The position numbers and the translations under genes are program-made. This document shows, piece by piece, positions 11,177 through 34,324 of a DNA stretch of 64,000 nt (the first letter of the stretch is position 1; each line of letters opens with the position of its first letter). The notes beneath the pieces were generated by a model. It was not told where the DNA came from. It did no database searches and worked only from the letters and a program-made list of their open reading frames with translations. This DNA is from Melioribacteraceae bacterium. Lineage in GTDB: Bacteria; Bacteroidota; Ignavibacteria; Ignavibacteriales; Melioribacteraceae. Where the stretch lies: contig JAEINS010000018.1 of assembly GCA_016342755.1 (NCBI GenBank), forward strand, positions 19,279 through 83,278, written 5' to 3'.

Positions 11177-11202
11177 TTTGTTCTCCAATAATTATTAAAC
11201 TT

Positions 11203-16597: not shown

Positions 16598-16627
16598 GCG
16601 CAAGTTTTTATAAATTACATCGTCAAA
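16598..16627 (+). promoter_or_regulatory. ECF-type promoter motif, copy 1 (autoregulatory, upstream of the ECF sigma gene)
   Basis: GCGCAAGTTTTTATAAATTACATCGTCAAA. CAAGT and CGTC starts are exactly 20 nt apart. It lies 51 nt upstream of the ATG. Confidence 0.65.
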
Positions 16628-16671: not shown

Positions 16672-17211
16672 ATGCATCTAGATTTTCAGGCAATTGTTGA
16701 AACAAATCAGGATAGGGTACGCAATACCTGTTTCCGGTTTGTAAATAATTTGGAAGATGCAGAAGATATTGCTCAGGAAGTTTTTGTCCAGGTCTATGAA
16801 TCTTTTTCACATTTTCGGGAAGAAGCAGAGCTTTCCACATGGATTTATAGAATTGCCGTAAATAAATCGCTCGATTTCTTACGTAAATCAAAGCGTAAAA
16901 AAAGATTCGGGCAGATGGTATCTTTGTTTGGTTTTGGTGAAGAAGAGGAAGAAATTAGAATTCCTTCGAGTAGTAATCCGCAGCGTGAACTTGAAGATGA
17001 TGAACGAAAGCAGATTCTATATATGATAATCAGAAAGTTGCCGGAAAATCAGCAGACTGCTTTAACACTTAGTAAGCTTGAAGGATTTAACAATAAAGAA
17101 GTTTCAAAGATAATGGAGATGTCACTTTCAGCGGTTGAAGCTTTAATGTTCAGAGCAAAAAAAAATCTTGAAAAAAAATTAAGAAGTTATTTTGAAAAAG
17201 AAAAAACCTAA
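16672..17211 (+). CDS. ECF-subfamily RNA polymerase sigma-70 factor
   Basis: Region 2 (AEDIAQEVFVQVY...STWIYRIAVNKSLDFLR) and region 4 (LPENQQTALTLSKLEGFNNKEVSKIMEMSLSAVEALMFRAKKNL). Confidence 0.9.
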   Translation: MHLDFQAIVETNQDRVRNTCFRFVNNLEDAEDIAQEVFVQVYESFSHFREEAELSTWIYRIAVNKSLDFLRKSKRKKRFGQMVSLFGFGEEEEEIRIPSSSNPQRELEDDERKQILYMIIRKLPENQQTALTLSKLEGFNNKEVSKIMEMSLSAVEALMFRAKKNLEKKLRSYFEKEKT

Positions 17212-17259
17212 CACAAGTTTTTAGAAAATATATCGTCCAATAAAATAAGGACAAGAATT

Positions 17260-17583
17260 ATGAATAAAAAAAATACTATAGAAGAAGAAATTCAAAAAAC
17301 ATTAGCACAGTTTGATAATGCGGAAAGGCTTCCATCAAATCCTTATTTTTATACTCGTGTAAAACAAAGGATTGATGAGAGAAAAAAAACGCACAGAACT
17401 TTTTTTGCTGTTCTGAAACCAGCAACACTAGCTCTTCTATTATTAATAAACGTCAGCACAGTTACATGGTATCTTAATGGAAGTACCACTACCAGTGTTG
17501 ATACAAAATCAGAGTTAGCTGAAATTTTATCAGGTGATCTAAATTTAGAAGTTGAAGAAACAGATCTATTTAATATAGAGTAG
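17260..17583 (+). CDS. Putative single-pass anti-sigma factor
   Basis: 107 aa with one central TM helix. Assigned by position immediately downstream of the ECF sigma gene. No ZAS motif is present. Confidence 0.5.
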   Translation: MNKKNTIEEEIQKTLAQFDNAERLPSNPYFYTRVKQRIDERKKTHRTFFAVLKPATLALLLLINVSTVTWYLNGSTTTSVDTKSELAEILSGDLNLEVEETDLFNIE

Positions 17584-17591
17584 GAAAAATC

Positions 17592-18149
17592 ATGGATGTA
17601 TTTAAACGAAATCGAAATCTAATTATCACAATTATTGTTCTGGTACTGTTTAATCTTGTAACAGTTACGCTTTTGATAATTGGTAAACCGCCTCATCCCA
17701 TGGGGGAAGAAAATATGGGAGAAATAAAGGATAATAATAGACGTCTTGAACATCTTTTAAAGGTTGAGCTAAGTTTTACAAATGAACAGGCAAAGGAATA
17801 TATAAAACTCAGAAAAGAACATCGTGATGGAGCTATATCTATTAACGCTGAACTTAAGAGACTTAGAACACAAATGTTTGATGAAGTTTTAAGTACTAAT
17901 CTTTCACCAACTCTTTCAGATTCATTGCTAAACCTAACTTTAGAAAAACAAGCCGAAATTGAAAAATTAACCTTTAATCATTTTTTAGATTTGAAAAACT
18001 TATGTGATCCAGAACAGCGGAAAAAACTCAAATTATTAATGTTCCAAATAGAAGGTCCGCCTCCGGGTAGAAATTTAAAAGGATTACCTCTTGATGGAAA
18101 TCATGACAGACCTCCGCCACCGCCAAACGGTGAGAGACCTCCAAACTAA
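17592..18149 (+). CDS. Membrane-anchored Spy/CpxP-like (periplasmic heavy-metal-sensor family) protein with a Pro-rich tail
   Basis: N-terminal TM helix, LTxxQ-like motifs (FTNEQAKEY, DPEQRKKL), C-terminal GPPPGRN...DRPPPPPNGERPP. It is the third gene of the sigma operon. Confidence 0.6.
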   Translation: MDVFKRNRNLIITIIVLVLFNLVTVTLLIIGKPPHPMGEENMGEIKDNNRRLEHLLKVELSFTNEQAKEYIKLRKEHRDGAISINAELKRLRTQMFDEVLSTNLSPTLSDSLLNLTLEKQAEIEKLTFNHFLDLKNLCDPEQRKKLKLLMFQIEGPPPGRNLKGLPLDGNHDRPPPPPNGERPPN

Positions 18150-18468: not shown

Positions 18469-18510
18469 ATATAACTAATAAAAAATCAAATAATACAATT
18501 GGAGAATAAA

Positions 18511-18927
18511 ATGAAAAGGACTCAAAAATTAACAGATAACATTCAACTACTTGTCATTTCACTATTAATAATTTCCAGCAATATTTTTGCTCAGCAAAGA
18601 GGACAGCAAAACGAACCTCCACGAACACCAGATATAACTGGATTAGTTGATGAATTGGGTTCAAAACTTTCATTATCAAGCGATCAAAAATCCACGGTTA
18701 AAGATTTGTTCATTTCTCATTTTGAAGAAGTTGAAGGTTTAATGAAATCAGACCGTGGAGAAAGAGATGCAATGCATACTAAAATGCAAAAACTTAAAAG
18801 TAATTTAGATAATGCTATAATTGCGCTGCTTAATGATGATCAAATTGAGGCATTCAAAGAACTTCAGAAAAATCAGAATAAACAAAGAAATAATAGACAA
18901 CCAAGAAATCAGAGACCACAAAGATAA
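18511..18927 (+). CDS. Hypothetical secreted protein with an LTxxQ-like motif and a basic Q/N/R/P-rich tail
   Basis: Signal peptide, LSSDQKSTVKDLF, DDQIEAFKELQ, tail NNRQPRNQRPQR. I prefer the ATG at 18511, preceded by GGAGA, over the ORF-track TTG at 18499. Confidence 0.6.
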   Translation: MKRTQKLTDNIQLLVISLLIISSNIFAQQRGQQNEPPRTPDITGLVDELGSKLSLSSDQKSTVKDLFISHFEEVEGLMKSDRGERDAMHTKMQKLKSNLDNAIIALLNDDQIEAFKELQKNQNKQRNNRQPRNQRPQR

Positions 18928-19117: not shown

Positions 19118-19333
19118 ATGTCAATTCAAAGTATTAACGGATGTATAGGTTGTGAAACATGCATAAAAATGTGCCCGACTGATGTAATTCGTTTAGATCC
19201 CAAAACAAAAAAAGCCGTTATAAAATATCCGGCTGATTGCCAAATTTGTCATTTGTGCAGAATGTATTGTCCGGTTGATGCAATCACAATTTCACCGGAA
19301 AAATCAATTCCAGTTATTGTATCGTGGGGATAA
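19118..19333 (+). CDS. 2x[4Fe-4S] ferredoxin
   Basis: 71 aa with two CxxCxxCxxxCP motifs (CIGCETCIKMCP, CQICHLCRMYCP). Confidence 0.9.
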   Translation: MSIQSINGCIGCETCIKMCPTDVIRLDPKTKKAVIKYPADCQICHLCRMYCPVDAITISPEKSIPVIVSWG

Positions 19334-19334
19334 T

Positions 19335-19955
19335 ATGAAAAAGTATAATCTAACTTTTATATCAATAGTTTTTTTAGTACTCCCAATATTCCTATTGCTG
19401 ATGGGAGATTTTAAAGAGAGAACATTACTAAAGGATTCAATCTCAATTTTAACAATTATTGCTTTCTGTTTAATGTCCGGACAATTATTTCTTAACCGGA
19501 ATTACAGAAAAATCAGACATGATATGAAGATGAGCAGCGTTGTTAAAATTCATAAGTTTATTGGATATTCCTTTTTAGTTGTTCTTTTAGTTCACCCTTT
19601 TCTGATTGTTGTTCCAAGATTTTTTGAATCGGGTGTTGAACCAATTGATGCATTTATGACTATTATAACTACGTTTAACAGTCTGGGTGTTATACTTGGA
19701 ATAATAGCCTGGTGTTTACTGCTGGTTTTAGGAATCACATCAATGTTTCGTAATAAACTTAAATTTAGTTATAAAACATGGCGTGTATTCCATGGAATCC
19801 TGGCATTTGCCTTTATAGTATTTGCTGTTTGGCATGTTATTGATCTTGGTCGTCATATAAATTTTTTAATGTCTGTATATCTAATTGCTATAGCTTTCTT
19901 CGGTATCGTACTCCTACTAAATACTTACTTATTTAATTCATCAACAAGGGTTTGA
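19335..19955 (+). CDS. Ferric-reductase-like (MsrQ/YedZ-type) transmembrane haem-binding protein
   Basis: About 6 TM helices with conserved His in the helices (HKFIGY...LLVHPF; VFHGILAF...VWHV). I prefer the ATG at 19335, 1 nt after the ferredoxin stop. The ORF-track start at 19275 would overlap the ferredoxin gene. Confidence 0.65.
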   Translation: MKKYNLTFISIVFLVLPIFLLLMGDFKERTLLKDSISILTIIAFCLMSGQLFLNRNYRKIRHDMKMSSVVKIHKFIGYSFLVVLLVHPFLIVVPRFFESGVEPIDAFMTIITTFNSLGVILGIIAWCLLLVLGITSMFRNKLKFSYKTWRVFHGILAFAFIVFAVWHVIDLGRHINFLMSVYLIAIAFFGIVLLLNTYLFNSSTRV

Positions 19956-19959
19956 GAAA

Positions 19960-21714
19960 ATGACTATACAAAGTGGAATTAATAAAATAACACGACGGAA
20001 TTTTTTAGCCTTGGCCGGAGGCACCGTAGGAATGGCGGCTCTAGCTTCAATGGGTGTTCCGGCAAGTTTTATAGAAAATAATCTGGAGATAGATTTAGAT
20101 AAGATAGATCATCAGGAAAATGAAGCTGATGTGTTAGTAATTGGCGGAGGAATGGCTGGTTTATTTGCGGCAGTAAAGGCACACGATGCCGGAGCAAAAG
20201 TTATGCTTGTTTCAAAAGGCAGTTTAGGTTCATCAGGGCAAACACCCTTTGCTAAAGGGATATTTGCGTATGATAAAGATTTAACCAACGTAAGTCTTGA
20301 TGAATTTGTTGATCAAGTATCAAGATCGGCAATAGGGACTAATAATCCGGTCTATACAAAACAAATGGCTGAACACTCACTGGCCAGAGTTACTGATCTT
20401 AGAGAATGGGGATTTTTTGATTCACCGCTTTATAACAATTCTTTCAACAAACCAATTAAAGAACGTAACATTCCGGTAATGGAACGAATTACAATTACAC
20501 ATCTCATTAAAGAAAATGATCGTATTGCTGGTGCAGCCGGATTTAGTGTTGATGAGGAGAAAGTACATTTTTTTAACGCTAAAAGTGTAATACTCTGTAC
20601 CGGAGCCGGCGGATTTAAACCAAACGGATTTCCAATTTGTGACTTAACACATGATGGAACTGTTATGGCTTATAACATAGGTGCAAAAGTAACCGGGAAA
20701 GAATGGAACGATGGTCATCCGGGACAATCGATAAATGCGGCCTCCTGCTTTGATGGCTGGCATGGGATGTTTGAAAGGAAGCCTGGTTTAACAAGTGTAG
20801 AGATACATCACGACTTAGGCGTAGATATGAATTATATGGCATACATGAATGGAAATCCTTTGCAGATGGGGCCTCCCGGGATGAATAATCAGAAAGGAAG
20901 TACTGGAGGACCTTATCGCCCAGAAGAGTTTAGTAGAAAAGAACCACCGGGAGGAGATAACAAACCACCAGGAAGAGAACAACCAAAAGAAGGCGGAGCG
21001 CCTCCTGGAATGGGCGGAACAGTAGTTGGCGGTTCTTCAGCCGGGATGTCAATTCATAAATCGGAAGGATTGGTTCCAATCAATGATAAATGTGAATCTA
21101 CAATTCCCGGACTATATGCAGCCGGTGATGCATTAGGTTCATATATGGCTGGGGCAATCTATACACAGATAGGTTCATCACTAGCCGGATCAGCAGTACA
21201 GGGAGCTGTTGCCGCAGAAGCCGCGGCGAAATATAGCAAGTATATTGAATTCCAAAATATTTCTAAAAATGTCATGAATAAAATTGAAGAAGAAATACTT
21301 GCACCATTAAAAAGAGATGCAGGTTATAGTCCGGCCTGGGTAACACAAACTTTGCAAGGGATTATGATTCCCAACTTTGTATTATATATAAAGAAAGAAA
21401 GCATGTTAAAGGCGGCATTAGCATATATCGAAGAATTGAGAGATCACCATATGCCTATGTTAAAAGCAGCTGATATGCACGAACTTAGATTAGCCCATGA
21501 AACTAGGAACATGATTTTAAGTGCGGAAATGAAATTAAAAGCTTCAATCATGCGTACAGAAAGCCGCTGTAGTCATTACCGCCTCGATTATCCAGATATG
21601 GATAATGAAAACTGGCAAGCATGGATAAACATTTATAAAGGATCTGATGAAACAATGCAATTTGAAAAACAACCTTTTGACTCATGGCCGAATGGTAAAA
21701 GGATTATTGTTTAA
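19960..21714 (+). CDS. Tat-exported FAD-dependent oxidoreductase (fumarate reductase/AprA-like flavoprotein fold)
   Basis: Twin-arginine signal TRRNFLALAGG, FAD dinucleotide motif DVLVIGGGMAGLFAA, late FAD motif GLYAAGDA, C-terminal ESRCSHYR block. Confidence 0.8.
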   Translation: MTIQSGINKITRRNFLALAGGTVGMAALASMGVPASFIENNLEIDLDKIDHQENEADVLVIGGGMAGLFAAVKAHDAGAKVMLVSKGSLGSSGQTPFAKGIFAYDKDLTNVSLDEFVDQVSRSAIGTNNPVYTKQMAEHSLARVTDLREWGFFDSPLYNNSFNKPIKERNIPVMERITITHLIKENDRIAGAAGFSVDEEKVHFFNAKSVILCTGAGGFKPNGFPICDLTHDGTVMAYNIGAKVTGKEWNDGHPGQSINAASCFDGWHGMFERKPGLTSVEIHHDLGVDMNYMAYMNGNPLQMGPPGMNNQKGSTGGPYRPEEFSRKEPPGGDNKPPGREQPKEGGAPPGMGGTVVGGSSAGMSIHKSEGLVPINDKCESTIPGLYAAGDALGSYMAGAIYTQIGSSLAGSAVQGAVAAEAAAKYSKYIEFQNISKNVMNKIEEEILAPLKRDAGYSPAWVTQTLQGIMIPNFVLYIKKESMLKAALAYIEELRDHHMPMLKAADMHELRLAHETRNMILSAEMKLKASIMRTESRCSHYRLDYPDMDNENWQAWINIYKGSDETMQFEKQPFDSWPNGKRIIV

Positions 21715-21858: not shown

Positions 21859-21888
21859 GCACAAGTTATTCCTAAAAACATCGTCTTA
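21859..21888 (+). promoter_or_regulatory. ECF-type promoter motif, copy 4 (upstream of CotH-1)
   Basis: GCACAAGTTATTCCTAAAAACATCGTCTTA. Same spacing. It lies 50 nt upstream of the ATG. Confidence 0.6.
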
Positions 21889-21931
21889 GTATCTAGGAGA
21901 CAGTTAGAATCAATTATATATGAGGTAAACC

Positions 21932-23335
21932 ATGTTAAAATTAAAAAGCATTTTAGCACTTTTATTCTTCACATTTCTATTATTGAATTGCGAGGATACC
22001 GTAACGGATACCGGGGATGTATCTTCTAAAATTGAGTATACAACAGATCTCGATCTATCCGACTGGTCTGAAACAACACATGGCAAAGGTGCCGACCCTG
22101 ACTATGATATTGTATTTCCCCAAGACAAAGTAAATAGAATTGATATTGTAATTACTGAAAATAACTGGGATGTTATGCTTGAAGATATGACATCAAAATA
22201 CGGCAGTTTTGGAGGAAGCTCAGGAAGGCCTGCAATGCCTAGCGATTCAGATGAGAATCCTATTTATGTACCATGTTCATTCTACTTTAACAATGTACAA
22301 TGGTATCAGGTTGGGATTAGATTTAAAGGGAATTCGAGTTTAACAACTGCCTGGCAGCAGGGTATTTGGAAATTACCGTTCAGACTACATTTTGACAAAT
22401 TTGAAGATGATTATCCGGAAATAAATAACCAGAGATTTTACGGATTCAAGGAACTTGCTCTATCAAGTAATTATGATGATAACTCACTACTTCGAGAAAA
22501 AGTTGCTCCGGAAATATTTAGAGATTTTGGAGTTGCTGCCCCGCAGACAGCATTTTACAGAGTGTACATTGATAATGGTGATGGCCCCATCTACTTTGGT
22601 CTTTATACAATGGTTGAAAAAGTAGAGGATACAATGTTAGATGATCAGTTTTCTGATAACGATGGAAACCTTTATAAACCTGAAGGAACCGGAGCAAGCT
22701 TTGCAGTAAATTCTTTTAATACTGCCGACTTCGAAAAAAAGACAAATGAAGAAACAGATTGGTCGGATATAGAAAACTTATTTGATGTTTTGCATTCTTC
22801 TACAAGAACAAGCGATGCCTCAGTTTGGAGAAACAATCTGGAAGCAACATTTAATGTTGATGTATTTTTAAAATGGCTTGCTGTTAATAACACAATTCAG
22901 AATTGGGATACCTACGGCAGAATGACTCATAATTATTATCTGTACAATAATCCTAAAGACAATCGGTTAACCTGGATTCCATGGGATAATAATGAAGCTT
23001 TCCAAACTGGCAAACAAAGTGGTGCAATATCAATAACTTGCAATGATGTAAGCAATAGCTGGCCATTAATAAGATATTTAATAGATGATGAAGTATATCT
23101 AGCTAAATATAAAGCTAACTTAAAACAAGTTATAGAAATGGCTTTTGAACCATCGAATATGATTTCCAAGTATCAGGACTATTCAAATCTCATTCGTGAA
23201 CATGTTGTTGGTGAAAACGGAGAAAAAAACAACTACTCATTTTTAAACTCAGACTCTGAATTTGATTCAGCTGTAAATTATTTAATCTCGCATGTAAACA
23301 GTAGAAATAGTGTAGTTAAAAACTACGTGGACTAA
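21932..23335 (+). CDS. CotH-family (atypical protein kinase fold) lipoprotein
   Basis: Lipobox LLNCE. CotH-like blocks: VGIRFKGNSS, YGFKELALSSNYDDNSLLREK, FGLYTMVEKVEDTMLD, GNLYKPEG, NYYLYNNP......IPWD.N. Confidence 0.8.
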   Translation: MLKLKSILALLFFTFLLLNCEDTVTDTGDVSSKIEYTTDLDLSDWSETTHGKGADPDYDIVFPQDKVNRIDIVITENNWDVMLEDMTSKYGSFGGSSGRPAMPSDSDENPIYVPCSFYFNNVQWYQVGIRFKGNSSLTTAWQQGIWKLPFRLHFDKFEDDYPEINNQRFYGFKELALSSNYDDNSLLREKVAPEIFRDFGVAAPQTAFYRVYIDNGDGPIYFGLYTMVEKVEDTMLDDQFSDNDGNLYKPEGTGASFAVNSFNTADFEKKTNEETDWSDIENLFDVLHSSTRTSDASVWRNNLEATFNVDVFLKWLAVNNTIQNWDTYGRMTHNYYLYNNPKDNRLTWIPWDNNEAFQTGKQSGAISITCNDVSNSWPLIRYLIDDEVYLAKYKANLKQVIEMAFEPSNMISKYQDYSNLIREHVVGENGEKNNYSFLNSDSEFDSAVNYLISHVNSRNSVVKNYVD

Positions 23336-23368
23336 TTTCATCTAACTATAGATAATACAAAAAAGGAA

Positions 23369-23398
23369 GTGCAAGTTTTCTTAACAAATGTCGTCTTA
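23369..23398 (+). promoter_or_regulatory. ECF-type promoter motif, copy 5 (upstream of the MFP-like/VTC/DUF4956/beta-helix operon)
   Basis: GTGCAAGTTTTCTTAACAAATGTCGTCTTA. Same spacing. It lies 46 nt upstream of the TTG start. Confidence 0.6.
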
Positions 23399-23437
23399 TA
23401 ATTTAACGACAGAATGAAAAATTAAAAGGTTTACAAA

Positions 23438-24496
23438 TTGAATAAGAGAACCCAAATAATATTACTCATTGCAACTAGTTTTGCTTTACTGTGTTCATTC
23501 TATTTGCCAATTGAAGTTCCCTATACTATAAGCGGTATCGCGAAGATACTTCCTAATAAACAGTTAATATTATCGCGTGGCTCGGATGGTGACATTTTAA
23601 CAAATACAGTAAATCATATTAGCGGGGTCAACAATTCTTATCAGCTAACATCCTTTGAACGTGGTGAATCAATGTTGTTAAATCTAACTCCAACACTGCG
23701 CAATGGACAGATAGTTGAGAAAGGTGATACACTTGGTGTTATCTATTCAAGCAGACAACAGGAAGCATTAATTGAGCTTAATGGTGAACTAGGAATTTTA
23801 AAAGCTACTCTTAAATCAAATATGAGTGGTGAAAAGAAAACTGAAGTAAAAGAAGCAGAAGAAAGAATGGAGATGGCAAAATCTGAATATCATAAACAAT
23901 CACAAATTGTTGAAAGATTAAATGCTCTTATGCAAAGAGATTTAATTGCTAAAGAAGAGTACCAAACAGCTTCAGATGAGCTTATAGTTCTTTCGAAAGC
24001 AATAAACGTACGCAAAGCAGAGTTAGAATCATGTTTGAGCGGAGTAAAAGCTGAAGAAATAAATACACTTAAAAAGCAAATAAACGCTATTGAGAATAAG
24101 ATTTCTTTCTTGAACAAAAAGGCAGCAAAACAAAATTCAATTACTGCTCCTTTTAGCGGAAGAATAGATAGATCTTTTTCAAACGATACACTATTTACAT
24201 TATCAAACTTTGATAGCGGAATTGCTTTCATACCAGTTCCATTAAAAGAAGCTTCCTATATTGAAACTAATGAGTTAGTATCATTTGAGTTAACAAATAC
24301 TAATTCAGCTTTATCTGGAACTGTACAAACGAAACAGCCGGTAATGCAATTTATTGGCGGGAAACAATGTTTGATAATATTAGCTCAGATAGATAATTTA
24401 TCAAATAATTTTATTTCCGGAATAATAGCTCAAGCTCAAATTCAATGTGAGCCGGTTCAACTCGATACATTTATTATAAGAACTATTTTTAACTGA
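23438..24496 (+). CDS. HlyD/membrane-fusion-protein-like periplasmic adaptor (TTG start)
   Basis: N-terminal TM helix, lipoyl-like VEKGDTLGVIYS, long coiled-coil hairpin, ITAPFSGRI beta-barrel motif. Confidence 0.65.
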   Translation: MNKRTQIILLIATSFALLCSFYLPIEVPYTISGIAKILPNKQLILSRGSDGDILTNTVNHISGVNNSYQLTSFERGESMLLNLTPTLRNGQIVEKGDTLGVIYSSRQQEALIELNGELGILKATLKSNMSGEKKTEVKEAEERMEMAKSEYHKQSQIVERLNALMQRDLIAKEEYQTASDELIVLSKAINVRKAELESCLSGVKAEEINTLKKQINAIENKISFLNKKAAKQNSITAPFSGRIDRSFSNDTLFTLSNFDSGIAFIPVPLKEASYIETNELVSFELTNTNSALSGTVQTKQPVMQFIGGKQCLIILAQIDNLSNNFISGIIAQAQIQCEPVQLDTFIIRTIFN

Positions 24497-24505
24497 GGTG
24501 AGAAC

Positions 24506-25288
24506 ATGGCTTCAAGATACGAATACAAATATTTAGTGCCGAATGAATTAGCGGATGTACTGAGAGCAGAAATGGCTCCATTTGTTGAGTTAGATAATTT
24601 TGCAAAAAAACATGAAACTGGTCAATATACTGTAAGAAGCATCTACTTCGATTCTCCAAGGTTTACATGTTATAAAGAAAAATATGACGGAATTAAAATT
24701 AGAAATAAATATAGAATTAGAGGCTATGATACTTTAGCAGATGATAGCATAATATTTTTAGAAATAAAACATAAAGACACAAATTGCATTTCTAAAAGCC
24801 GGGCACCGCTTTACTATTCTGATGTATACAAAACATTAGATGCTAGAAGAATAGATGAGTTTATCCTTTCGTTTAGCGGTAATGGAATTGAAAAAAAAGA
24901 TGCTCAAAAATTTCTATATCATTATTATAAAAATAATTTACGTCCGGCTGTGCTGGTTATTTATGATCGTGAAGCTTTTTGGGGGAAATTTGATACTTCA
25001 CTCAGATTCACATTTGATAAAAATTTACGGAGTGTGATTTTCCCGAACTTACAAAATCTATATGATGAAGAAAGAGCAAAACAGACAATGGTAAACAACT
25101 TTGTCTTTGAAGTAAAGTTTTATGGAACTTTACCAGCATGGATAAAATCGATTATAAGTAAATATCGTTTAAACAGACAAGCGATTTCCAAGTATACATT
25201 ATCATTAGAAACTCATTCGGAATTTAACAACCAACGTTTTGCAACAAGTAACTTGATGATTAATCATCGGGAGTGTTCTTATGTTTAA
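24506..25288 (+). CDS. VTC-domain protein (polyphosphate polymerase / triphosphate-tunnel domain)
   Basis: 260 aa. N-terminal RYEYKYLV, then repeated basic/acidic beta-strand motifs (VRSIYFDS, KIRNKYRIRGY, FLEIKHK, FVFEVKF) typical of CYTH/VTC tunnel proteins. Confidence 0.7.
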   Translation: MASRYEYKYLVPNELADVLRAEMAPFVELDNFAKKHETGQYTVRSIYFDSPRFTCYKEKYDGIKIRNKYRIRGYDTLADDSIIFLEIKHKDTNCISKSRAPLYYSDVYKTLDARRIDEFILSFSGNGIEKKDAQKFLYHYYKNNLRPAVLVIYDREAFWGKFDTSLRFTFDKNLRSVIFPNLQNLYDEERAKQTMVNNFVFEVKFYGTLPAWIKSIISKYRLNRQAISKYTLSLETHSEFNNQRFATSNLMINHRECSYV

Positions 25289-25955
25289 TGAATTTCAAAG
25301 CTTTAACATGTTCCCAGTTACAATATCAGAAATTGTAACAAACGTAATTGTTGCATTGATATGCGGATTATTTATCGCCCACATATATAAAAAATCATAT
25401 CGCGGTGCTGGCTATTCCGCGGCATTTGTTAATTCTATGATTATACTTACTATAATAACCGCTATTGTAATAATGGTTATTGGTAATAACCTTGCGCGCG
25501 CGTTTGGTCTGGTTGGTGCAATGTCAATCATTCGTTTTAGAACTGCCGTTAAAGATACACAAGATATTGTATTTCTTTTCTTCGGATTAGCAATAGGAAT
25601 GGCAGCAGGTGTTGGTTATCATAAAATGGCAATCTTTGGATCTGTATTTGTCGGGATAATTATTTTAATACTTACAAAGTCTAACTTTACCTCTACCAGA
25701 CAAGATGAATACTTACTGCAATTTGCATACGCTGCAAAGGGAGATACATCTACTCCGTATCTACCAATTCTAAATAAATTTTGTAGACGGCATAATATTA
25801 TCAATGCAAAAACTATTGAGAACCAAGGTATTATGGAACTCTCATATTATGTCAAATTCAAAAATATATCACGTAATCCTGAGTTTATAAAAGCATTAGA
25901 TAATACACATGGCGTAAAAAATATAAATCTCTTTTTTGATGAAGAGCAAATCTAA
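25281..25955 (+). CDS. DUF4956-family membrane protein
   Basis: Four or five TM helices and the signature block ARAFGLVGAMSIIRFRTAVKDTQDIVFLFFGLAIGMAAG. Overlaps the VTC gene by 8 nt. Confidence 0.7.
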   Translation: MFNEFQSFNMFPVTISEIVTNVIVALICGLFIAHIYKKSYRGAGYSAAFVNSMIILTIITAIVIMVIGNNLARAFGLVGAMSIIRFRTAVKDTQDIVFLFFGLAIGMAAGVGYHKMAIFGSVFVGIIILILTKSNFTSTRQDEYLLQFAYAAKGDTSTPYLPILNKFCRRHNIINAKTIENQGIMELSYYVKFKNISRNPEFIKALDNTHGVKNINLFFDEEQI

Positions 25956-25966
25956 AGGAGGACAAA

Positions 25967-27652
25967 ATGTATAACAAAATATATTCGCTATTGATTCCGT
26001 TTCTAATGATAACTGTATTTGCCGCATGCGAAACCACAACAGAACCGGAAGAGGATACTACAGAAACCGCTGCTGAAATTGTTCAAGACGCTGAAAACCA
26101 TAACGATGAAGATGATTACACATGGAACGAAGGCGACGAAGTTAATGTTATTTTAGAAGACAACAATATTTTAATTACTGGGAATGGTGCTTCTGCGACT
26201 GATAATAGTGTTACAATAACTGCTGAAGGAACTTACAATTTCAGCGGCACTCTTAGTGACGGACAAATAATTGTTAATAGTGAAGATGATGAAATTGTAC
26301 GTCTTGTCTTAAATGGAGTAAATATCAATTGTGCAAACAGTGCGCCTATTTACTTTAAAAATGCTGATAAGGGAATGATTGTTCTAACCGAAAATACAGA
26401 AAATTATATATCTGATGGAACTTCCTATATCTTTGATGATTCTGAAAACAAGGAACCAAACGCAGCTATATTCTGCAAAACCGATCTAACAATTAGTGGG
26501 GAAGGTTCTTTAACTGTTAAAGGAAATTTCAATGATGGAATAGTTAGTAAAGATGGATTGATAATTACTTCTGGAACTATCAATGTAAATGCAGTGGATG
26601 ATGCTATTAGAGGAAAAGATTATCTGGTTATTTATAACGGGAATTTGACTCTTGATGCAGATGGTGTTGGGTTAAAATCAGATAATACTAATGATGCGTC
26701 ACTCGGATACATTACAATTGAAAATGGTGTTATAAATATTTCATCTGGCGGTGAAGGAATAGAAGCTGAAAAAGATGTTGCGATAAGTTCTGGAGAAATT
26801 ACAATATCCTCATCTGGAAAAGGAATAAACGGAATTGTTAATACAGAAATTGGCGGTGGTAATATAAATATTACATCTGTTGATGATGCAATCCATTCTA
26901 ATGGAACTGTAACTATAAATAACGGTACTATTACTATCTCATCAAATGATGACGCGATTCATGCTGATTATGACTTGGTTATCAACGATGGTTATATAAA
27001 CATTACCAAATCGTATGAAGGTATTGAAAGCAGCAACGGAAATATCACAATAAATGGCGGAGAAATTCATCTTATATCAAGTGATGATGGATTTAATCTA
27101 GCTGCTAGCGGCAGTGTGGAACCCGGCTCTTCAGCAGGCAACTACTATTTAAATATTAATGGTGGTTATATTGCAGTAAATGCCAGTGGTGACGGTGTTG
27201 ACGCAAATGCTTCGGTTGTTATGTCAGACGGCTATTTAATAGTAAGCGGATCAACAGCGAGTAATAATAGTGCTTTAGATTATGATGGTTCATTTGCTAT
27301 GAATGGCGGATTCATGGTAGCAACCGGAACTTCCAGAATGGCTGAAGCACCTAGCACCAGTTCAAGTCAGAATTCTATTCTTATAAATTTCAATACAACT
27401 TTAAGTGCAGGTTCAATTATATATATTGAAACTGAATCTGGAGAAGAAATAGTTGCTTTAAGTCCTGTGAAATCTTATCAATCAATAGCCTTGTCTTCCC
27501 CATTGCTTGAAAAAAACAAATCCTATACTGTTTACACCGGAGGCAGTTACTCAGGTACAATAACTGATGGAGTTTATTCTGGCGGATCCTATACATCCGG
27601 TACAAACTATACTAGTTTTACAATTTCCAGCACTGTAACATCAATTAACTAA
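25967..27652 (+). CDS. Cthe_2159/DUF4353-like right-handed beta-helix lipoprotein ('carbohydrate-binding domain' family)
   Basis: Lipobox VFAACE, an acidic linker, then repeated coils (DDAIRGKD, DDAIHSNGTVTINNGTITISSNDDAIHADYDLVINDGYINITKSYEGIES, GGEIHLISSDDGFN). Confidence 0.7.
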   Translation: MYNKIYSLLIPFLMITVFAACETTTEPEEDTTETAAEIVQDAENHNDEDDYTWNEGDEVNVILEDNNILITGNGASATDNSVTITAEGTYNFSGTLSDGQIIVNSEDDEIVRLVLNGVNINCANSAPIYFKNADKGMIVLTENTENYISDGTSYIFDDSENKEPNAAIFCKTDLTISGEGSLTVKGNFNDGIVSKDGLIITSGTINVNAVDDAIRGKDYLVIYNGNLTLDADGVGLKSDNTNDASLGYITIENGVINISSGGEGIEAEKDVAISSGEITISSSGKGINGIVNTEIGGGNINITSVDDAIHSNGTVTINNGTITISSNDDAIHADYDLVINDGYINITKSYEGIESSNGNITINGGEIHLISSDDGFNLAASGSVEPGSSAGNYYLNINGGYIAVNASGDGVDANASVVMSDGYLIVSGSTASNNSALDYDGSFAMNGGFMVATGTSRMAEAPSTSSSQNSILINFNTTLSAGSIIYIETESGEEIVALSPVKSYQSIALSSPLLEKNKSYTVYTGGSYSGTITDGVYSGGSYTSGTNYTSFTISSTVTSIN

Positions 27653-27847
27653 ATATTTTTTTGCGGACTAAAAAAGATAATGATCTTAAAATAAGACCAT
27701 CCTCGTATTGGTAAAAATATTATTAAAGATTATTAAAGATCTAGCTTAAATACCTAGCCTTTTTTTTTATTTGAAATAAAGAGATCAGAATAATTGTCTA
27801 AAGTTATAAAGTGATAATACGATTATATTTTTTACATGGAGTTGGAA

Positions 27848-29335
27848 ATGAAATCAGAAAGAAAAAACAAAATAATTAAAACTATTATAATGCTGTTTTT
27901 TAGTTGTGTAACACTTTATGCACAATCTTATAAAATAGTTGATACGGGACAAAAAACTTTTTACAGTGATAAAAACATTATCAGTGAACCTTCTTCTGAA
28001 GATGATTTCTTTGGTCAGGATGCAAACTATAATGGAAACCAGCCATCATACACCGATAACGGCGTCGGAACTGTTACAGATAATGTTACTGGATTAATAT
28101 GGCAGAAATCAATGGATGAAAAAATATCTTTCGATGAAGCCTTTATTAAAGCAGATTCTTTAAGTCTGGCTAATTATACTGATTGGAGAGTTCCGACACT
28201 TAAAGAGCTCTATTCCCTTATTCAGTTTACAGGGCAAGTTTCTGGCGCAACTGCTATATCAATGTTTATTGATACTAATTATTTTATTCAACCATTAGGA
28301 AACACCAATATTGGTGAGCGCGAAATTGATGCACAGACATGGTCTTCTACAGAATATGTTGGAAGAACTATGAATAATGATGAAACTGTATTTGGTGTAA
28401 ACTTTGTTGATGGTAGAATTAAAGGATATCCACCAGGTACAGGCTCTTCAAATACAATGTATTTCCGAATGGTTAGAGGAAATATTGACTATGGGAAAAA
28501 CAACTTTGTTGATAATGAAGACAATACAATTAGTGATCTTGCTACTGGTTTAATGTGGCAAAAAGCTGATGATGGCATAGCTAGGAATTGGAATGAATCA
28601 CTTACCTATGCAGAAACTTCTGAACTAGCCGAATACGATGACTGGCGCTTGCCAAATGCTAAAGAATTACAAAGTATTGTTGATTATACCAGATCTCCTC
28701 AAACAACAAATTCACCGGCAATCGATCCCATTTTTGAAACAACTGAGATAAATGATCCTGATGGAAATTCCGGACATTATCCATTTTTCTGGACGAGCAC
28801 AACTCATCTTGATGGTGTGAATCCATATTCAGGAGCTGCATATATTGCTTTTGGTGAAGGACAAGGAGAAATGAACGGAAATCTATTGGATGTTCATGGA
28901 GCCGGTTGCCAAAGAAGTGATCCTAAAAGTGGAAATATCAATGATTACCCGCAATTCTTTGGACCTCAGGGAGATGTAAGGTATGTTTACAATTATGTTC
29001 GACTAGTTCGAAATATAGATAACACATCAACTGATATTAAAGATGATCAATCAAATACTTCCGAAGTTCCCAAAAAATTTGAGTTGAAACAAAACTATCC
29101 TAATCCGTTTAACCCAAGTACTCAAATAACTGTAAGTATTCCAGAGAGCGGAAACTATACTCTTAAAGTTTATAACGTTTTAGGTCAGGAAGTTGCAAAG
29201 TTATTAAGTGATGAAATTTCAGCAGGAATTCATAATTTCAATTTTGATGCAGCAAAACTTACTTCAGAAATTTATTTTTACAACTTTAGAGGAAGTGATT
29301 TTAATCAGACAAAAAAGATGATGCTGATAAAATAA
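27848..29335 (+). CDS. DUF1566 (Lcl C-terminal-like) repeat protein with a T9SS C-terminal sorting domain
   Basis: Two DWR(V/L)P..KEL motifs and C-terminal NYPNPFNPST...KKMMLIK. I prefer the ATG at 27848, preceded by GGAG, over 27836. Confidence 0.75.
   Translation: MKSERKNKIIKTIIMLFFSCVTLYAQSYKIVDTGQKTFYSDKNIISEPSSEDDFFGQDANYNGNQPSYTDNGVGTVTDNVTGLIWQKSMDEKISFDEAFIKADSLSLANYTDWRVPTLKELYSLIQFTGQVSGATAISMFIDTNYFIQPLGNTNIGEREIDAQTWSSTEYVGRTMNNDETVFGVNFVDGRIKGYPPGTGSSNTMYFRMVRGNIDYGKNNFVDNEDNTISDLATGLMWQKADDGIARNWNESLTYAETSELAEYDDWRLPNAKELQSIVDYTRSPQTTNSPAIDPIFETTEINDPDGNSGHYPFFWTSTTHLDGVNPYSGAAYIAFGEGQGEMNGNLLDVHGAGCQRSDPKSGNINDYPQFFGPQGDVRYVYNYVRLVRNIDNTSTDIKDDQSNTSEVPKKFELKQNYPNPFNPSTQITVSIPESGNYTLKVYNVLGQEVAKLLSDEISAGIHNFNFDAAKLTSEIYFYNFRGSDFNQTKKMMLIK
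29069..29335 (+). repeat. T9SS CTD-coding repeat, copy A
   Basis: Closely matches 33006-33272 at the nucleotide level, including an identical 32-nt run caaaactatcctaatccgtttaacccaagtac. Confidence 0.8.
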
Positions 29336-29362: not shown

Positions 29363-29399
29363 ATATACAGCCAGTTGTTTTTAACAACCGGCTGTATAT
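29363..29399. terminator. Bidirectional terminator hairpin between convergent genes
   Basis: 17-bp stem with one mismatch and a 3-nt loop: ATATACAGCCAGTTGTT-ttt-AACAACCGGCTGTATAT. Confidence 0.65.
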
Positions 29400-30856: not shown

Positions 30857-30886
30857 GCACAAGTTTTATTATAAAAGATCGTCTTA
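30857..30886 (+). promoter_or_regulatory. ECF-type promoter motif, copy 6 (upstream of CotH-2)
   Basis: GCACAAGTTTTATTATAAAAGATCGTCTTA. Same spacing. It lies 68-80 nt upstream of the start. Confidence 0.6.
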
Positions 30887-30959
30887 CTTAAAAAGCATGA
30901 ATCTAATGACTGTTACTTTCATTAGCAATTAAACTATTATGAACTAAGTGAGAATTAAA

Positions 30960-33272
30960 ATGACGAAAAAAAAATCAACCATATTATTATTTATAATTTT
31001 TCTTACATCTAATATATTTGGACAAAATTTTTATGATATAAACACCATTAATAGTGTAGAAATAACATTTTCAGAATCAAACTGGGATTACTTATTGGAT
31101 AACCTGGTTTCAGAAGGTAATGAGGAACGCTTGTTAGGAACGGCTGTAGTAAATGGAATTACCTACGATAGTGTTGGCGTAAGATATAAAGGGAACAGCA
31201 GTTATCAGCCTAATCAAGTAAAAAACCCCTTAAATATTAAACTTGATTATACAATTGACGGTCAGGAACATGAGGATTACGGAACTTTAAAACTGGCGAA
31301 TGTTTACAAGGATCCAAGTTTTGTTAGAGAAACTTTAAGTTATGAAATTGCCCGAAAGTATATGCCGGCTAGTTTAGCAAATTATACTAAGGTTTATATA
31401 AACGGTACTTATTTAGGAATATACACTAATGTTCAGGATGTTGATAAAAACTTTATACGAAGTAATTATTTTAGCTCAGATAATTCTTTTTTTAAAGGTG
31501 AGCTAGTAAACGATAGTCCGCAATCAAATACAAAAGTTTGGGGCTACTTTGGTGAAGATTCATCAAGCTATACCAACTATTTTGAAATTGAATCAGATAA
31601 TGGCTGGGCAGATTTAGTAAACTTTCTTGATGTACTAAACAATGATCCGGAATCAGTTGAAGAGGTTCTTAATGTTGACCGCCATTTATGGATGCTTGCA
31701 TTTGACATTTTATTGGTAAACTTAGATGCACCGGTAAACTTTGGACACAATTATTATTTATATAAAGATGATGCCGGAAAATTTAATCCGATTATTTGGG
31801 ATCTTAACGAAAGCTTCGGAATCTTCTCTTCACTTCTTGGCGGAAATTCCTTAAATACTTCGGGAAAGCAGCAGCTAACTCCTTACTTAAATTCAACAAA
31901 TAGTAATTACCCTATAATTAATAAAATTCTAAATGACCCAACTTACAAGAAAATGTATGTTGCGCATATGAAAACAATTATGTCTGATTATTTTGAAAGC
32001 GGATTGTATAGAACAAGAGCTTTGGAAATTCAGAATATAATTGCTTCAGAAGTAGAAAAAGATCCAAATAAATTTTATACATATACAGATTTTAGAAATA
32101 ATATTGAAAACGGGATTTCAAGCGGCGGAGGTGGTGCCCCGGGAAGAAATGAATCAATTATTGGTATCGCTGAATTAATGGATGCCAGAGTTACATACTT
32201 AAACTCACTGGCAGATTTTCAGGCAACAAGTCCGGTTATCTCTAATCTGGGACAAAATCCGGCTAATCCTTCTCCTAATACAGATGTATGGATAACTGTT
32301 GAAATTACCAATGCTACATCAGTAAAATTGGCTTACAGAAATAGCCTTACTGAAGCTTTTAAAAAAATTGAAATGTTAGATGACGGCAGCAATAACGATA
32401 CATCCGCAAGCGATGGAATCTACGGAGTTTCTGTACCAGCCGGAACTAGCGGATTTCAATATTACATTTACGCTGATAATGACGACGCGGCAGCTTTTTT
32501 ACCGGCACGCGCGGCATACGAGTTTTATACACTTACGGTTTCAGGAAATCTGGTAATAAACGAGTTTATGGCTAGTAATGAAGTTACTGAAACAGATGCA
32601 GACGGAGAATATGAAGACTGGATTGAACTTTACAATAATACTGATGAAGATATAGAACTAAATGGATATTTTTTATCGGATGATAGTGACAATCTATCTC
32701 AGTGGGCATTCCCGGATACATTTATTACCGCTAACAGTTTTTTAATTGTCTGGGCAGATAAAGATGAAGACCAACAAGGATTACACGCAAGTTTTAAACT
32801 TTCGGGCTCTGGGGAAACAATTTATTTATCTGATACTGATACAACCATAATTGATGAAATAAGTTACAGTGAGCAGACTGATGATATTTCATATGGCCGT
32901 TATCCAAACGGAACTGGAGCATTCCAACAAATGAATCCATCTTTTGAACTAGAGAATAATAATGATGTAACGGCAATTGGAAATTCAGACGAAGATTCAA
33001 CAATTCCCAAAGAGTTTGTTTTACAGCAAAACTATCCTAATCCGTTTAACCCAAGTACACAAATAGCTGTTAGTATTCCAAAAAGTGGGAATTATACTCT
33101 AAAGGTTTATAATCTATTAGGTCAGGAAGTTGCGACACTTTTAAATGATCAGGTTTCAGCCAGAACCCACAAGTTTAATTTTGATGCTTCAAATTTAACT
33201 ACCGGAATTTATTTTTACAGCTTTAGAGGAAATAATTTTAGTCAGACTAAAAAAATGATGCTGGTCAAATAG
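30960..33272 (+). CDS. CotH-family protein with a lamin-tail domain and a T9SS C-terminal sorting domain
   Basis: CotH blocks (VGVRYKGNSS, GTLKLAN...DPSFVRE, NYYLYKD......IIWDLNES), LTD (LVINEFMASN...DWIELYNNTDEDIELNGYFLSDD) and the CTD. An alternative GTG start lies at 30948. Confidence 0.8.
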   Translation: MTKKKSTILLFIIFLTSNIFGQNFYDINTINSVEITFSESNWDYLLDNLVSEGNEERLLGTAVVNGITYDSVGVRYKGNSSYQPNQVKNPLNIKLDYTIDGQEHEDYGTLKLANVYKDPSFVRETLSYEIARKYMPASLANYTKVYINGTYLGIYTNVQDVDKNFIRSNYFSSDNSFFKGELVNDSPQSNTKVWGYFGEDSSSYTNYFEIESDNGWADLVNFLDVLNNDPESVEEVLNVDRHLWMLAFDILLVNLDAPVNFGHNYYLYKDDAGKFNPIIWDLNESFGIFSSLLGGNSLNTSGKQQLTPYLNSTNSNYPIINKILNDPTYKKMYVAHMKTIMSDYFESGLYRTRALEIQNIIASEVEKDPNKFYTYTDFRNNIENGISSGGGGAPGRNESIIGIAELMDARVTYLNSLADFQATSPVISNLGQNPANPSPNTDVWITVEITNATSVKLAYRNSLTEAFKKIEMLDDGSNNDTSASDGIYGVSVPAGTSGFQYYIYADNDDAAAFLPARAAYEFYTLTVSGNLVINEFMASNEVTETDADGEYEDWIELYNNTDEDIELNGYFLSDDSDNLSQWAFPDTFITANSFLIVWADKDEDQQGLHASFKLSGSGETIYLSDTDTTIIDEISYSEQTDDISYGRYPNGTGAFQQMNPSFELENNNDVTAIGNSDEDSTIPKEFVLQQNYPNPFNPSTQIAVSIPKSGNYTLKVYNLLGQEVATLLNDQVSARTHKFNFDASNLTTGIYFYSFRGNNFSQTKKMMLVK
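33006..33272 (+). repeat. T9SS CTD-coding repeat, copy B
   Basis: See copy A at 29069-29335. Confidence 0.8.
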
Positions 33273-33373: not shown

Positions 33374-34324
33374 ATGAAAGCACAAGTTAAATTAAAATAT
33401 GTCGTCAAAGATTATATGATAGAAAACAATTCCCAAAATACTGCGATCAAAAAACCTATTACCGGGAACTATTTCCCTTTTCAAAAAAATATTCTTTTAA
33501 TGGAATTGCATGAATATATAAAACTTACAGGAGAGTCTTTTTTTGAGGGGCATAATACTAACATCAATAGAATATTATTTATCTGTAAGGGTAATGGAAC
33601 CTTTTGTATAGAAAAGACCGAATACAAATTTAATTCTAAATCCGTTATAACAATTGCAAAAGGTGATTTGCATAAACTCAATTTCACCGGAGAAACTACC
33701 GGTTACGTATTACTTTTCCCGGATAACCAGACAACTGATGCTAATAATTATTTCCATGCATTTTTAGATTTTACTTTTTTTTATTATTCACTTAAACCGG
33801 CTCCATTAAACTTAACCAATGAAAAATTCACAAAATTTTTAAGTATTATAGAATCAATTAAAAATACTGTGAATAATATTACGGATATAGCTAAGGTTAG
33901 TATTTCGTATAGCTTAGTAAAAAAACTATTGCTTGAGATACAATATTCTAAAATGAACATTCAAAATCTTTTAGAATCATTTGATTTGATATTACTAAAT
34001 AATTTCAATCAACTTTTAATATCAAAAATCAACATTTCTAGAAAAGCAGAATATTATACCAAACAATTAAATGTTTCTTCAACAAAATTAAATTCCACAA
34101 CAAAACTTTATTTAGACAAAAAGATTAAAGAAATAATTAATGCCAGAATTATATTCGATTCTAAAAAAATGCTTTCTGATACAAACTTTTCCATTAAAGA
34201 AATTAGTTACAATATGGGCTTTACTGATCCAACAAATTTTAATAAGTTTTTCAAAAAAATAACTTTAAGTACTCCTAAAGAATTTAGGAATAAATGTTAC
34301 ACTGAACATTTTAACCATAATTAG
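33374..34324 (+). CDS. AraC-family transcriptional regulator
   Basis: N-terminal cupin-like domain and C-terminal double HTH (....SIKEISYNMGFTDPTNFNKFFKK). The start codon is uncertain. Confidence 0.75.
   Translation: MKAQVKLKYVVKDYMIENNSQNTAIKKPITGNYFPFQKNILLMELHEYIKLTGESFFEGHNTNINRILFICKGNGTFCIEKTEYKFNSKSVITIAKGDLHKLNFTGETTGYVLLFPDNQTTDANNYFHAFLDFTFFYYSLKPAPLNLTNEKFTKFLSIIESIKNTVNNITDIAKVSISYSLVKKLLLEIQYSKMNIQNLLESFDLILLNNFNQLLISKINISRKAEYYTKQLNVSSTKLNSTTKLYLDKKIKEIINARIIFDSKKMLSDTNFSIKEISYNMGFTDPTNFNKFFKKITLSTPKEFRNKCYTEHFNHN

Follow-up and report, generated by a model that had tools for sequence, protein, structure and literature searches.

Among the closest described systems is the yeast VTC complex (Vtc4/Vtc3/Vtc1; PDB 8I6V, 7YTJ), in which enzyme and membrane protein are physically joined and from which the idea that polyphosphate (polyP) synthesis is coupled to membrane transit is taken. 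Reviews still cast VTC as the eukaryote-type and PPK as the prokaryote-type polyP polymerase (PMC12526157, PMC10657179). Here we describe a module in a 64-kb stretch of DNA from a Melioribacteraceae bacterium (hereafter the window), which encodes a periplasmic adaptor resembling membrane fusion proteins (MFPs), a stand-alone VTC-domain protein, and a DUF4956 membrane protein, with neighbouring genes for a CotH-family kinase-fold lipoprotein and a Cthe_2159-family beta-helix lipoprotein. The bacterial VTC protein has the same catalytic tunnel domain and the same triphosphate and Mn residues as its yeast counterpart. However, yeast VTC includes an SPX sensor and a DUF202 three-helix channel, whereas the bacterial protein comes without both and has a partner with five transmembrane (TM) helices and an ACT domain. 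Moreover, the yeast complex is regulated by inositol pyrophosphates and delivers to a vacuole, whereas the bacterial module is probably regulated by an extracytoplasmic function (ECF) sigma factor and the destination of its product would be the cell exterior.

A second precedent is found in Gram-positive bacteria, where a triad of genes for CotH, 'PPP' (VTC), and DUF4956 has been reported beside pel operons (Whitfield et al., bioRxiv 10.1101/768473). The association of these three families, which occur there in a tight arrangement with a CotH predicted to be secreted, is thus already known. In Streptococcus intermedius (SIR_1592-1594), Pel-dependent aggregation drops when the DUF4956 or CotH gene is deleted (PMC12345266), which is the sole genetic evidence for an effect of these two genes on the cell surface. 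The authors of the S. intermedius work state that they did not find the triad outside Pel loci, whereas we find it outside Pel loci in more than 80 cases. The module in the window differs from the pel triad by its diderm host, its MFP-like adaptor (with TolC in relatives), its lipoprotein partners and those bearing sorting tails of the type IX secretion system (T9SS), and its ECF control. Contiguity with pelDEADAFG was not found, and no pel or glycosyltransferase genes occur among the window open reading frames (ORFs) that were scanned. An earlier note on this stretch had stated that, to its author's knowledge, no function had been demonstrated for the gene set. This needs qualification, since the triad had been described and has deletion phenotypes; of the diderm version we found no description.

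The adaptor can be compared with those of the tripartite pumps MacAB–TolC and EmrAB–TolC. Its structural model superposes on MacA and EmrA (TM anchor, lipoyl domain, beta-barrel, and long hairpin), and some related loci add a gene for a TolC-like outer-membrane factor directly downstream. Unlike these pumps, the module includes no ABC, MFS, or RND component, DUF4956 is its only membrane protein, and the adaptor scores under every curated MFP cutoff. A similar logic of a cytoplasmic-face polymerase, an MFP-like partner, a beta-helix protein, and an outer-membrane exit characterizes synthase-dependent exopolysaccharide secretion (Alg8/Alg44/AlgG/AlgE; Pel), in which Alg44 is the MFP-like periplasmic partner and AlgG is the beta-helix protein. 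However, the polymerase in those systems is a glycosyltransferase, whereas the candidate here is a phosphate polymerase, and the window is without genes for a cyclic di-GMP receptor, a TPR scaffold, or a porin.

By analogy with these systems, the module may work as a hybrid of the yeast VTC complex and a tripartite pump. Neither the diderm arrangement, in which an adaptor and in some cases TolC are added, nor its ECF regulon turned up in the searchable literature. The same holds for the PPK2, phytase-like, and ASST-like neighbours and the GT2::VTC fusion described below, and for a demonstrated function of bacterial VTC or DUF4956.

Proteins encoded by the module

The genes for CotH (CotH1), the MFP-like adaptor, VTC, DUF4956, and Cthe_2159 all lie on the plus strand in this order (Table 1). 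They are separated by 102 nt, 9 nt, an 8-nt overlap, and 11 nt, respectively, and the coordinates and close spacing previously given for them were reproduced exactly from the ORFs. NCBI entries from a metagenome-assembled genome (MAG) of Melioribacteraceae (Ignavibacteriota) include exact matches (100% identity) to the VTC, MFP-like, and DUF4956 proteins. The domain identities are close to certain. Pfam matches for CotH, VTC, DUF4956, and Cthe_2159 far exceed the gathering scores, and the four family assignments in the earlier note thus hold when checked against Pfam profiles. Its two lipoprotein calls are likewise borne out by the N-termini of CotH1 (...FLLLNC-EDTVTD) and Cthe_2159 (...VFAAC-ETTTEPEE), both of which are followed by acidic stretches.

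The VTC protein comprises 260 aa, has a single domain and no signal peptide, and matches Pfam PF09359 with 138.4 bits (cutoff 23) over profile positions 2-231 of 235. When a profile built from 23 homologues is aligned with yeast Vtc4, residues K8, R70, R72, K88, Y153, R155, and E202 fall on Vtc4 K200, R264, R266, K281, Y359, R361, and E426, and all seven are invariant or at least 90% conserved across the 23 homologues. The triphosphate- and Mn2+-binding residues of Vtc4 are needed for polyP synthesis, and K458 separates active Vtc4 from the inactive Vtc2/3 (bioRxiv 10.1101/2023.01.27.525886). A conserved S228-K229-Y230 sequence in the bacterial protein is found 6-7 residues past the last aligned position, where the distance to S457/K458 in Vtc4 is 7-8 residues. 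S228/K229 probably match S457/K458; this is put no higher than probable because the hidden Markov model (HMM) alignment ends before this point and leaves a one-residue offset. A phmmer search of the VTC C-terminus against Vtc4 gave no match, and a C-terminal profile ended at Vtc4 E451. Given the Pfam score and the retained catalytic residues of Vtc4, the VTC assignment stands, and polymerase activity is fairly probable from these sequence features. Such proteins are common: a profile search with the stand-alone bacterial VTC yielded 10,493 clusters at 50% identity, a count that may take in eukaryotic VTC proteins at its weak end, and 823 of these clusters have E≤1e-30.

DUF4956 matches Pfam PF16316 with 55 bits (cutoff 30.6). 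Its structural model (pLDDT 71) contains five predicted TM helices followed by a C-terminal beta-alpha-beta-beta-alpha-beta domain, which matches the ACT domains 3ibw, 2ko1, and 6lxg in a fold search. The positive-inside rule suggests that the ACT domain and a basic RFRTAVK loop face the cytoplasm and therefore the side on which VTC resides. The family also has an invariant motif, GNNLARAFGLVGAMSIIRFRTAVKDTQD. A hydrophobic N-terminal domain joined to a C-terminal ACT-like domain is likewise the plan of the MgtC/YhiD/SapB proteins, and homologues of DUF4956 carry MgtC/YhiD-type names in JGI annotation. However, the matches to MgtC are weak and under cutoffs (PF02308, E=0.0065, 17 bits vs 31.4; PRK09977, E=3e-5, 24 vs 214), and DUF4956 is a distinct family that is locked to VTC and shows 79% identity between phyla (window and Calditrichia).

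The adaptor has no Pfam match, and its best NCBIfam matches (HlyD/RND_mfp, E 3e-9 to 1e-7) reach 31-37 bits against cutoffs of 95-393. Some homologues show weak precomputed HH_YBHG matches and nothing stronger. The TTG start is supported by the lengths of the homologues (350-353 aa). An AlphaFold2 model built from 31 homologues (pLDDT 83) shows an N-terminal TM helix, beta domains, a long alpha-helical hairpin (four long helices, residues 105-232), and a beta-barrel. A Foldseek search with this model matched MacA, EmrA, AcrA, and MexA over ~330 columns (E=2e-15, probability 1.0), and the best 50 matches are all adaptor or membrane-fusion proteins of efflux systems, including ZneB and Spr0693. 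As judged from the model, the 352-aa protein has the fold of a true periplasmic adaptor. The MFP-like assignment made earlier is thus upheld by fold and not by sequence. The earlier note was also correct that the adaptor has no ABC, RND, or MFS partner, since the operon otherwise holds only VTC, DUF4956, and Cthe_2159; likewise, no MacB gene is present among the window ORFs scanned. A complete RND efflux operon (OEP, HlyD-type adaptor, and AcrB-type pump) is located 10 kb upstream on the minus strand (6888-12546). It carries its own adaptor, has no ECF motif, and might provide a TolC-like duct for shared use.

CotH1 and a second CotH-family protein encoded downstream (CotH2) match Pfam PF08757 with 237 and 165 bits, respectively, and CotH1 matches the solved B. 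cereus CotH structure 5jd9 with E=2e-18. B. subtilis CotH depends on D228 and D251 (PMC7821199), and equivalents of these catalytic Asp residues are present in CotH1 as NWD(326)...HN...PWD(352) and in CotH2 as NLD(260)...HN...IWD(285). Both proteins are predicted to be extracytoplasmic, CotH1 as a lipoprotein and CotH2 by its signal peptide and T9SS tail. CotH2 has the architecture most common among the CotH neighbours of the module, most of which bear T9SS tails across loci, and this agrees with the previous suggestion of secreted CotH kinases. Cthe_2159 matches Pfam PF14262 with 307 bits in two stretches and belongs to a family that is carbohydrate-binding by its Pfam name.

Conservation of the core and its links to glycan clusters

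We collected 86 loci carrying relatives of the VTC gene, of which 83 are independent after removal of duplicate look-ups. These loci were annotated with HMMs built from the window proteins, with spot checks against Pfam. DUF4956 is encoded directly 3ˊ of VTC in at least 77 of the 80 loci with room for it, with small gaps or overlaps, and the two genes thus form an almost obligate, translationally coupled pair. In 63-64 of 79 loci, or ~80% of the diderm ones, the adaptor gene is directly 5ˊ of VTC, and the gap between the two is mostly -4 to +15 nt. The conserved core therefore consists of three genes, those for the MFP-like adaptor, VTC, and DUF4956, which stand together more often than expected by chance. 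This order is kept in Ignavibacteriota, Calditrichota, Bacteroidota, Zixibacteria, KSB1, Latescibacteria, WOR-3, and Gammaproteobacteria.

The proposal that all five genes form one conserved system did not survive this comparison. CotH genes occur in 40 of 83 loci, and in 26 of the 45 loci that have 8 kb or more of sequence on either side. In 29 of the 40, the distance to the module is no more than 430 nt, and the genes mostly encode a CotH domain, a lamin-tail domain (LTD), and a T9SS tail. Cthe_2159 is found in just five loci and at variable positions. Other neighbours recur: SdiA-regulated or phytase-like propellers are encoded directly 3ˊ of DUF4956 in 14 loci, and ASST-like propellers with T9SS tails are encoded 5ˊ of VTC in 13 loci, mostly within 1-5 kb. 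PPK2 genes occur in six loci from Ignavibacteriales and Melioribacteraceae (L033, L036, L042, L048, L051, and L058), in a same-strand run 0.75-5.5 kb downstream. A TolC-like OEP gene lies directly 3ˊ of DUF4956, ~680 nt past the VTC stop codon, in four Cytophagales loci (L029, L034, L040, and L062). These TolC-bearing loci (Sporocytophaga, Cytophagaceae) also have a gene for a conserved 318-aa lipoprotein 5ˊ of the adaptor gene.

In WOR-3, Stahlbacteria, and related genomes, one to three genes for T9SS-tailed arylsulfotransferase-like propellers between a CotH–LTD gene and VTC replace the adaptor gene. Such propeller loci include L020, L022, L026, L027, L030, L032, L043, L056, L073, and others. 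The adaptor is also missing in Anaerolineae loci.

The VTC protein of the window is 70% identical to that of Calditrichia and ~45% identical to those of other Melioribacteraceae. Furthermore, one Melioribacteraceae MAG (CAYXXW01) holds both types, with 70% identity at one locus (L010) and 45% at another (L048). Because the window module is nearer to Calditrichia than to most Ignavibacteriota and one MAG carries both types, these identities suggest that the module exists as two paralogous types and that the island as a whole was transferred laterally.

Two plasmids from Firmicutes carry the triad inside glycan clusters and lack the adaptor. In Planococcus the order is VTC–DUF4956–CotH–X–HEAT–chitin-synthase-like GT2, which is matched by the NELoc-2 locus of C. 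perfringens that is associated with necrotic enteritis, and in Pseudobutyrivibrio the triad lies within a GT2/GT4/acyltransferase cluster. A 308-aa protein encoded 5ˊ of VTC in Planococcus was considered as a cryptic adaptor and rejected (hhalign probability 1%). A further link to polysaccharides is provided by a fusion of a processive family-2 glycosyltransferase synthase to VTC (GT2::VTC; protein P0413, encoded at 3251-5407 of L087 and 607-2763 of L088). The fusion gene is followed by genes for DUF4956 and an LTD–ILEI–CotH protein, and is preceded by a DUF2334 deacetylase-like gene. This protein is a Rosetta-stone tie of VTC to exopolysaccharide synthases. No VTC::DUF4956 or CotH::VTC fusion was seen among the best 150 representatives, where GT2::VTC is the only fusion.

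Candidate mechanism and competing explanations

In the mechanism that we favour, the VTC tunnel enzyme would polymerize phosphate from ATP while docked on the cytoplasmic ACT face of DUF4956, and the polyP chain would then cross the inner membrane. The adaptor, with its long hairpin of the MacA/EmrA type, would take the chain through the periplasm to a TolC-type outer-membrane duct, encoded by the operon in some relatives and presumably elsewhere in the genome here. At the cell surface, the polymer could be bound, trimmed, or used by lipoproteins and T9SS-secreted accessories, such as CotH and Cthe_2159 in the window and the phytase-like and ASST-like propellers of other loci. Most attractively, the polymer would donate phosphoryl groups to CotH, for which no ATP is available outside the cell. 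Polyphosphate is the suggested product because the catalytic residues are conserved and PPK2 genes are among the neighbours. An envelope destination is suggested because an adaptor is coupled to VTC and a small membrane protein without a conventional transporter, because TolC follows DUF4956 in some loci while the adaptor is missing in monoderm examples, and because nearly every recurrent neighbour is secreted or surface-bound, with many in phosphate-ester or polyanion families. We place the probability of polyP synthesis plus envelope delivery as a whole at roughly 0.4.

The individual steps differ in strength. A complex of VTC, DUF4956, and the adaptor may exist, and export by way of DUF4956 and the adaptor is tentative. 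The adaptor had been proposed to bridge to the outer membrane. The four TolC-bearing loci and the adaptor-less monoderms favour this bridging, while export itself is something that we infer. Use of the exported polymer by CotH is speculation on our part. The fullest version, a new envelope-spanning machine in which the polymerase, an MgtC-like conduit, the adaptor, and TolC extrude polyP as donor or substrate for CotH and as an anionic matrix, is unlikely as formulated. If this version is true, the module would be the first polyP exporter known from bacteria and also the first extracellular kinase system to work without ATP.

Several points weigh against synthesis and export of polyP by the module. 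The searchable literature yielded no bacterial VTC-domain protein shown to make polyP, and the accessible sections of the S. intermedius report describe no deletion phenotype for the VTC gene (PMC12345266). The correspondence with S457/K458 was drawn by motif only and is offset by one residue. DUF4956 and the DUF202 channel of yeast are unrelated, which leaves conduction of polymer by the MgtC-like DUF4956, as in the split VTC analogue suggested earlier, without support. Its TM region, in a model of moderate confidence (pLDDT 71), matched no solved transporter or channel in the fold search. MgtC relatives are regulators and not known transporters. The operon in the window contains no TolC gene, and we know of no kinase-fold enzyme that uses polyP as donor. 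Finally, the real substrate could be a glycan rather than free polyP, because the monoderm triad always lies within polysaccharide clusters.

This last point leads to an alternative in which VTC, DUF4956, and CotH have a secreted polysaccharide as their target, by acting on it or by regulating it, and no free polyP is exported. The proteins could phosphorylate or prime the polysaccharide, or ionically cross-link cationic deacetylated glycans, with the beta-helix, chondroitinase-B-like, and propeller proteins as glycan-handling partners and the adaptor as an Alg44-like co-polymerase. Contiguity of the triad with Gram-positive pel operons agrees with such a role, as do the reductions in Pel-dependent aggregation described for the S. 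intermedius DUF4956 and CotH deletions. The chitin-synthase-like GT2 that ends the Planococcus and C. perfringens gene order, the Pseudobutyrivibrio GT2/GT4/acyltransferase cluster, the deacetylase-like gene adjoining the GT2::VTC fusion, and the Pfam name of Cthe_2159 point the same way. However, no glycosyltransferase, deacetylase, or pel gene was found among the scanned ORFs of the window and none is recurrent among 80 FCB-group loci, and the PPK2 and phytase-like neighbours suggest phosphate-polymer chemistry. We consider this exopolymer role somewhat unlikely, and it overlaps with polyP export, since polyP could be the co-secreted partner of a glycan. Alternatively, the polyP made by VTC could stay inside the cell. 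DUF4956 would then resemble MgtC in serving as an anchor or regulator and would sense a metabolite through its ACT domain, and the adaptor, CotH, and beta-helix proteins would be part of the same stress regulon and take no part in handling the polymer. The resemblance of DUF4956 to MgtC/YhiD (E=3e-5) and its ACT-like domain are consistent with this arrangement, as are the cytoplasmic nature of PPK2 enzymes, the absence of CotH from about half of the loci, and the Spy-like stress proteins in the regulon. An intracellular product nevertheless leaves unexplained the adaptor–VTC coupling in ~80% of diderm loci and its loss in monoderm examples, the four loci where TolC follows DUF4956, and the secreted or surface location of nearly all recurrent neighbours, and we judge it unlikely.

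It is also conceivable that the VTC protein is another triphosphate-tunnel enzyme, such as a tripolyphosphatase, a polyP-binding protein, or a cyclase, and that the cluster senses or degrades phosphate compounds. The triphosphate tunnel metalloenzyme (TTM) superfamily is functionally diverse (PMC9582702), the match to Vtc4 is remote (~E=1e-11 by profile), and both the SPX domain and the DUF202 channel are lacking. Retention of the full Vtc4 triphosphate/Mn set, a conserved S-K pair near the place of S457/K458, and the excess of the Pfam VTC score over its cutoff make this explanation decidedly unlikely. A chance juxtaposition of unrelated genes, to which nothing but the variability of the accessory genes would point, is refuted by the conserved gene order in the comparative data; the order is kept across phyla, one promoter motif is common to the genes, and fusion proteins exist, making chance extremely improbable.

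If the module indeed makes and exports polyP, several questions become testable: how bacteria release extracellular polyP, which donor serves secreted CotH kinases without ATP, why CotH, VTC, and DUF4956 affect streptococcal Pel aggregation, and why the genes are present in NELoc-2. The three-gene core is open to heterologous expression, and relatives of the module abound in phyla of sediment and wastewater that matter for phosphorus cycling.

A probable ECF-sigma regulon and the surrounding island

The upstream regions of the module genes share a motif, first spotted by eye, of the form CAAGTT-N13-TCGTC. There are six matches in the window compared to 0.17 expected, and none of 100 shuffles reaches six. 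All six sites are on the plus strand between 16.6 and 33.4 kb (Table 1), and one precedes the gene for an ECF sigma factor, as would be consistent with autoregulation. ECF promoters usually carry a CGTC element as their -10 signature. A Group-4 sigma factor, a repeated motif, and conservation in relatives were all found, and from these sequence features we interpret the region as an ECF-sigma-controlled envelope regulon of at least five transcription units around the sigma gene. The earlier note had recognized the gene cluster, whereas it overlooked this control as well as the links to PPK2, TolC, and exopolysaccharide synthases. A sigma-70 promoter scan of 16.3-34.5 kb was uninformative, with 87 sites against 84.5 expected.

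Parts of the regulon recur in Calditrichia. A trio of sigma, putative anti-sigma, and Spy genes also adjoins the module in the Calditrichia loci L001, L008, and L009, and a related motif, CAAGTTTT-N12-ACGTC, is located 25-69 nt 5ˊ of the orthologous adaptor–VTC operon in the same three loci. This motif also occurs 5ˊ of a MacAB-like operon and of Spy–Lcl operons in Calditrichia. A search for the exact motif of the window matched just three other loci, and the Calditrichia copies became visible after the pattern was relaxed. The 107-aa protein, a probable anti-sigma factor, has no Pfam match; its gene is kept 3ˊ of the sigma gene in Calditrichia loci. ORFs of 219 and 589 aa adjoin the module in the Calditrichia loci L007 and L009, and their sizes together with three phmmer matches per query suggest that they encode homologues of the ferric-reductase-like protein and the flavoprotein of the window.

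Table 1. Positions of module genes, ECF motifs, and neighbouring features in the window
Feature	Position	Strand	Evidence or remark
ECF motif 5ˊ of ECF sigma gene (autoregulation)	16601-16624	+	motif search
ECF sigma factor (Sigma70_r2 + r4_2)	16672-17211	+	Pfam E=6e-19, 5e-14
ECF motif 5ˊ of 107-aa gene	17214-17237	+	motif search
107-aa single-pass membrane protein, probable anti-sigma factor	17260-17583	+	central hydrophobic segment
Spy/CpxP-like periplasmic protein	17592-18149	+	PF13801 (Metal_resist) E=6e-4, under cutoff; position kept in Calditrichia
Second Spy-like secreted protein	18499-18927	+	homologues paired with Lcl_C genes in L007-L010, L059
Ferredoxin, ferric-reductase-like TM protein, Tat-signal FAD flavoprotein	19118-21714	+	part of conserved island
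ECF motif 5ˊ of CotH1	21862-21885	+	motif search
CotH1, CotH-family kinase-fold lipoprotein (Cys20)	21932-23335	+	Pfam CotH E=5e-70
ECF motif 5ˊ of four-gene adaptor–VTC–DUF4956–Cthe_2159 operon	23372-23395	+	motif search
MFP-like periplasmic adaptor, 352 aa, TTG start	23438-24496	+	AlphaFold2 model and Foldseek
VTC (triphosphate-tunnel) stand-alone domain protein, candidate polyphosphate polymerase	24506-25288	+	Pfam VTC E=4e-40
DUF4956 / MgtC-like membrane protein	25281-25955	+	Pfam DUF4956 E=1e-14
Cthe_2159-family beta-helix lipoprotein (Cys21), variable accessory	25967-27652	+	Pfam E=1e-91
Lcl_C (DUF1566) repeat protein with T9SS sorting tail	27836-29335	+	island common with Calditrichia
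ECF motif 5ˊ of CotH2	30860-30883	+	motif search
CotH2: signal peptide, CotH domain, lamin-tail domain, T9SS tail	30948-33272	+
Sixth ECF motif, in first 33 nt of annotated AraC-family ORF (33374-34324)	33383-33406	+

Some features of the island deserve brief mention. The AraC-family ORF may in fact begin with ATG 33416, just ~9 nt past the sixth motif, which would result in a leaderless or near-leaderless mRNA. A weaker variant of the motif, AAGTT...GCCGTC at 18221, may bring the Spy, ferredoxin, and flavoprotein genes into the regulon. In the ferredoxin-to-flavoprotein stretch (19118-21714), which has the highest GC content in the window (0.395), the small ferredoxin is of the 2x[4Fe-4S] kind and the ferric-reductase-like membrane protein is of the YedZ/MsrQ type. 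No ECF motif was found 5ˊ of the Lcl_C gene of the window. In relatives, this gene is always paired with a Spy-like gene bearing the ECF motif. A bidirectional terminator-like hairpin follows the Lcl_C gene at 29363-29399.

Elsewhere in the window, three sizeable ORFs of 612, 559, and 341 aa, respectively, have no Pfam match at E≤1e-4: 3261-5099 on the minus strand and 51175-52854 and 62717-63742 on the plus strand. T9SS cargo is frequent, with at least four genes, and an alpha-amylase-family protein with a T9SS sorting tail (38962-41832) is encoded near a DUF2202 protein (38038-38739).

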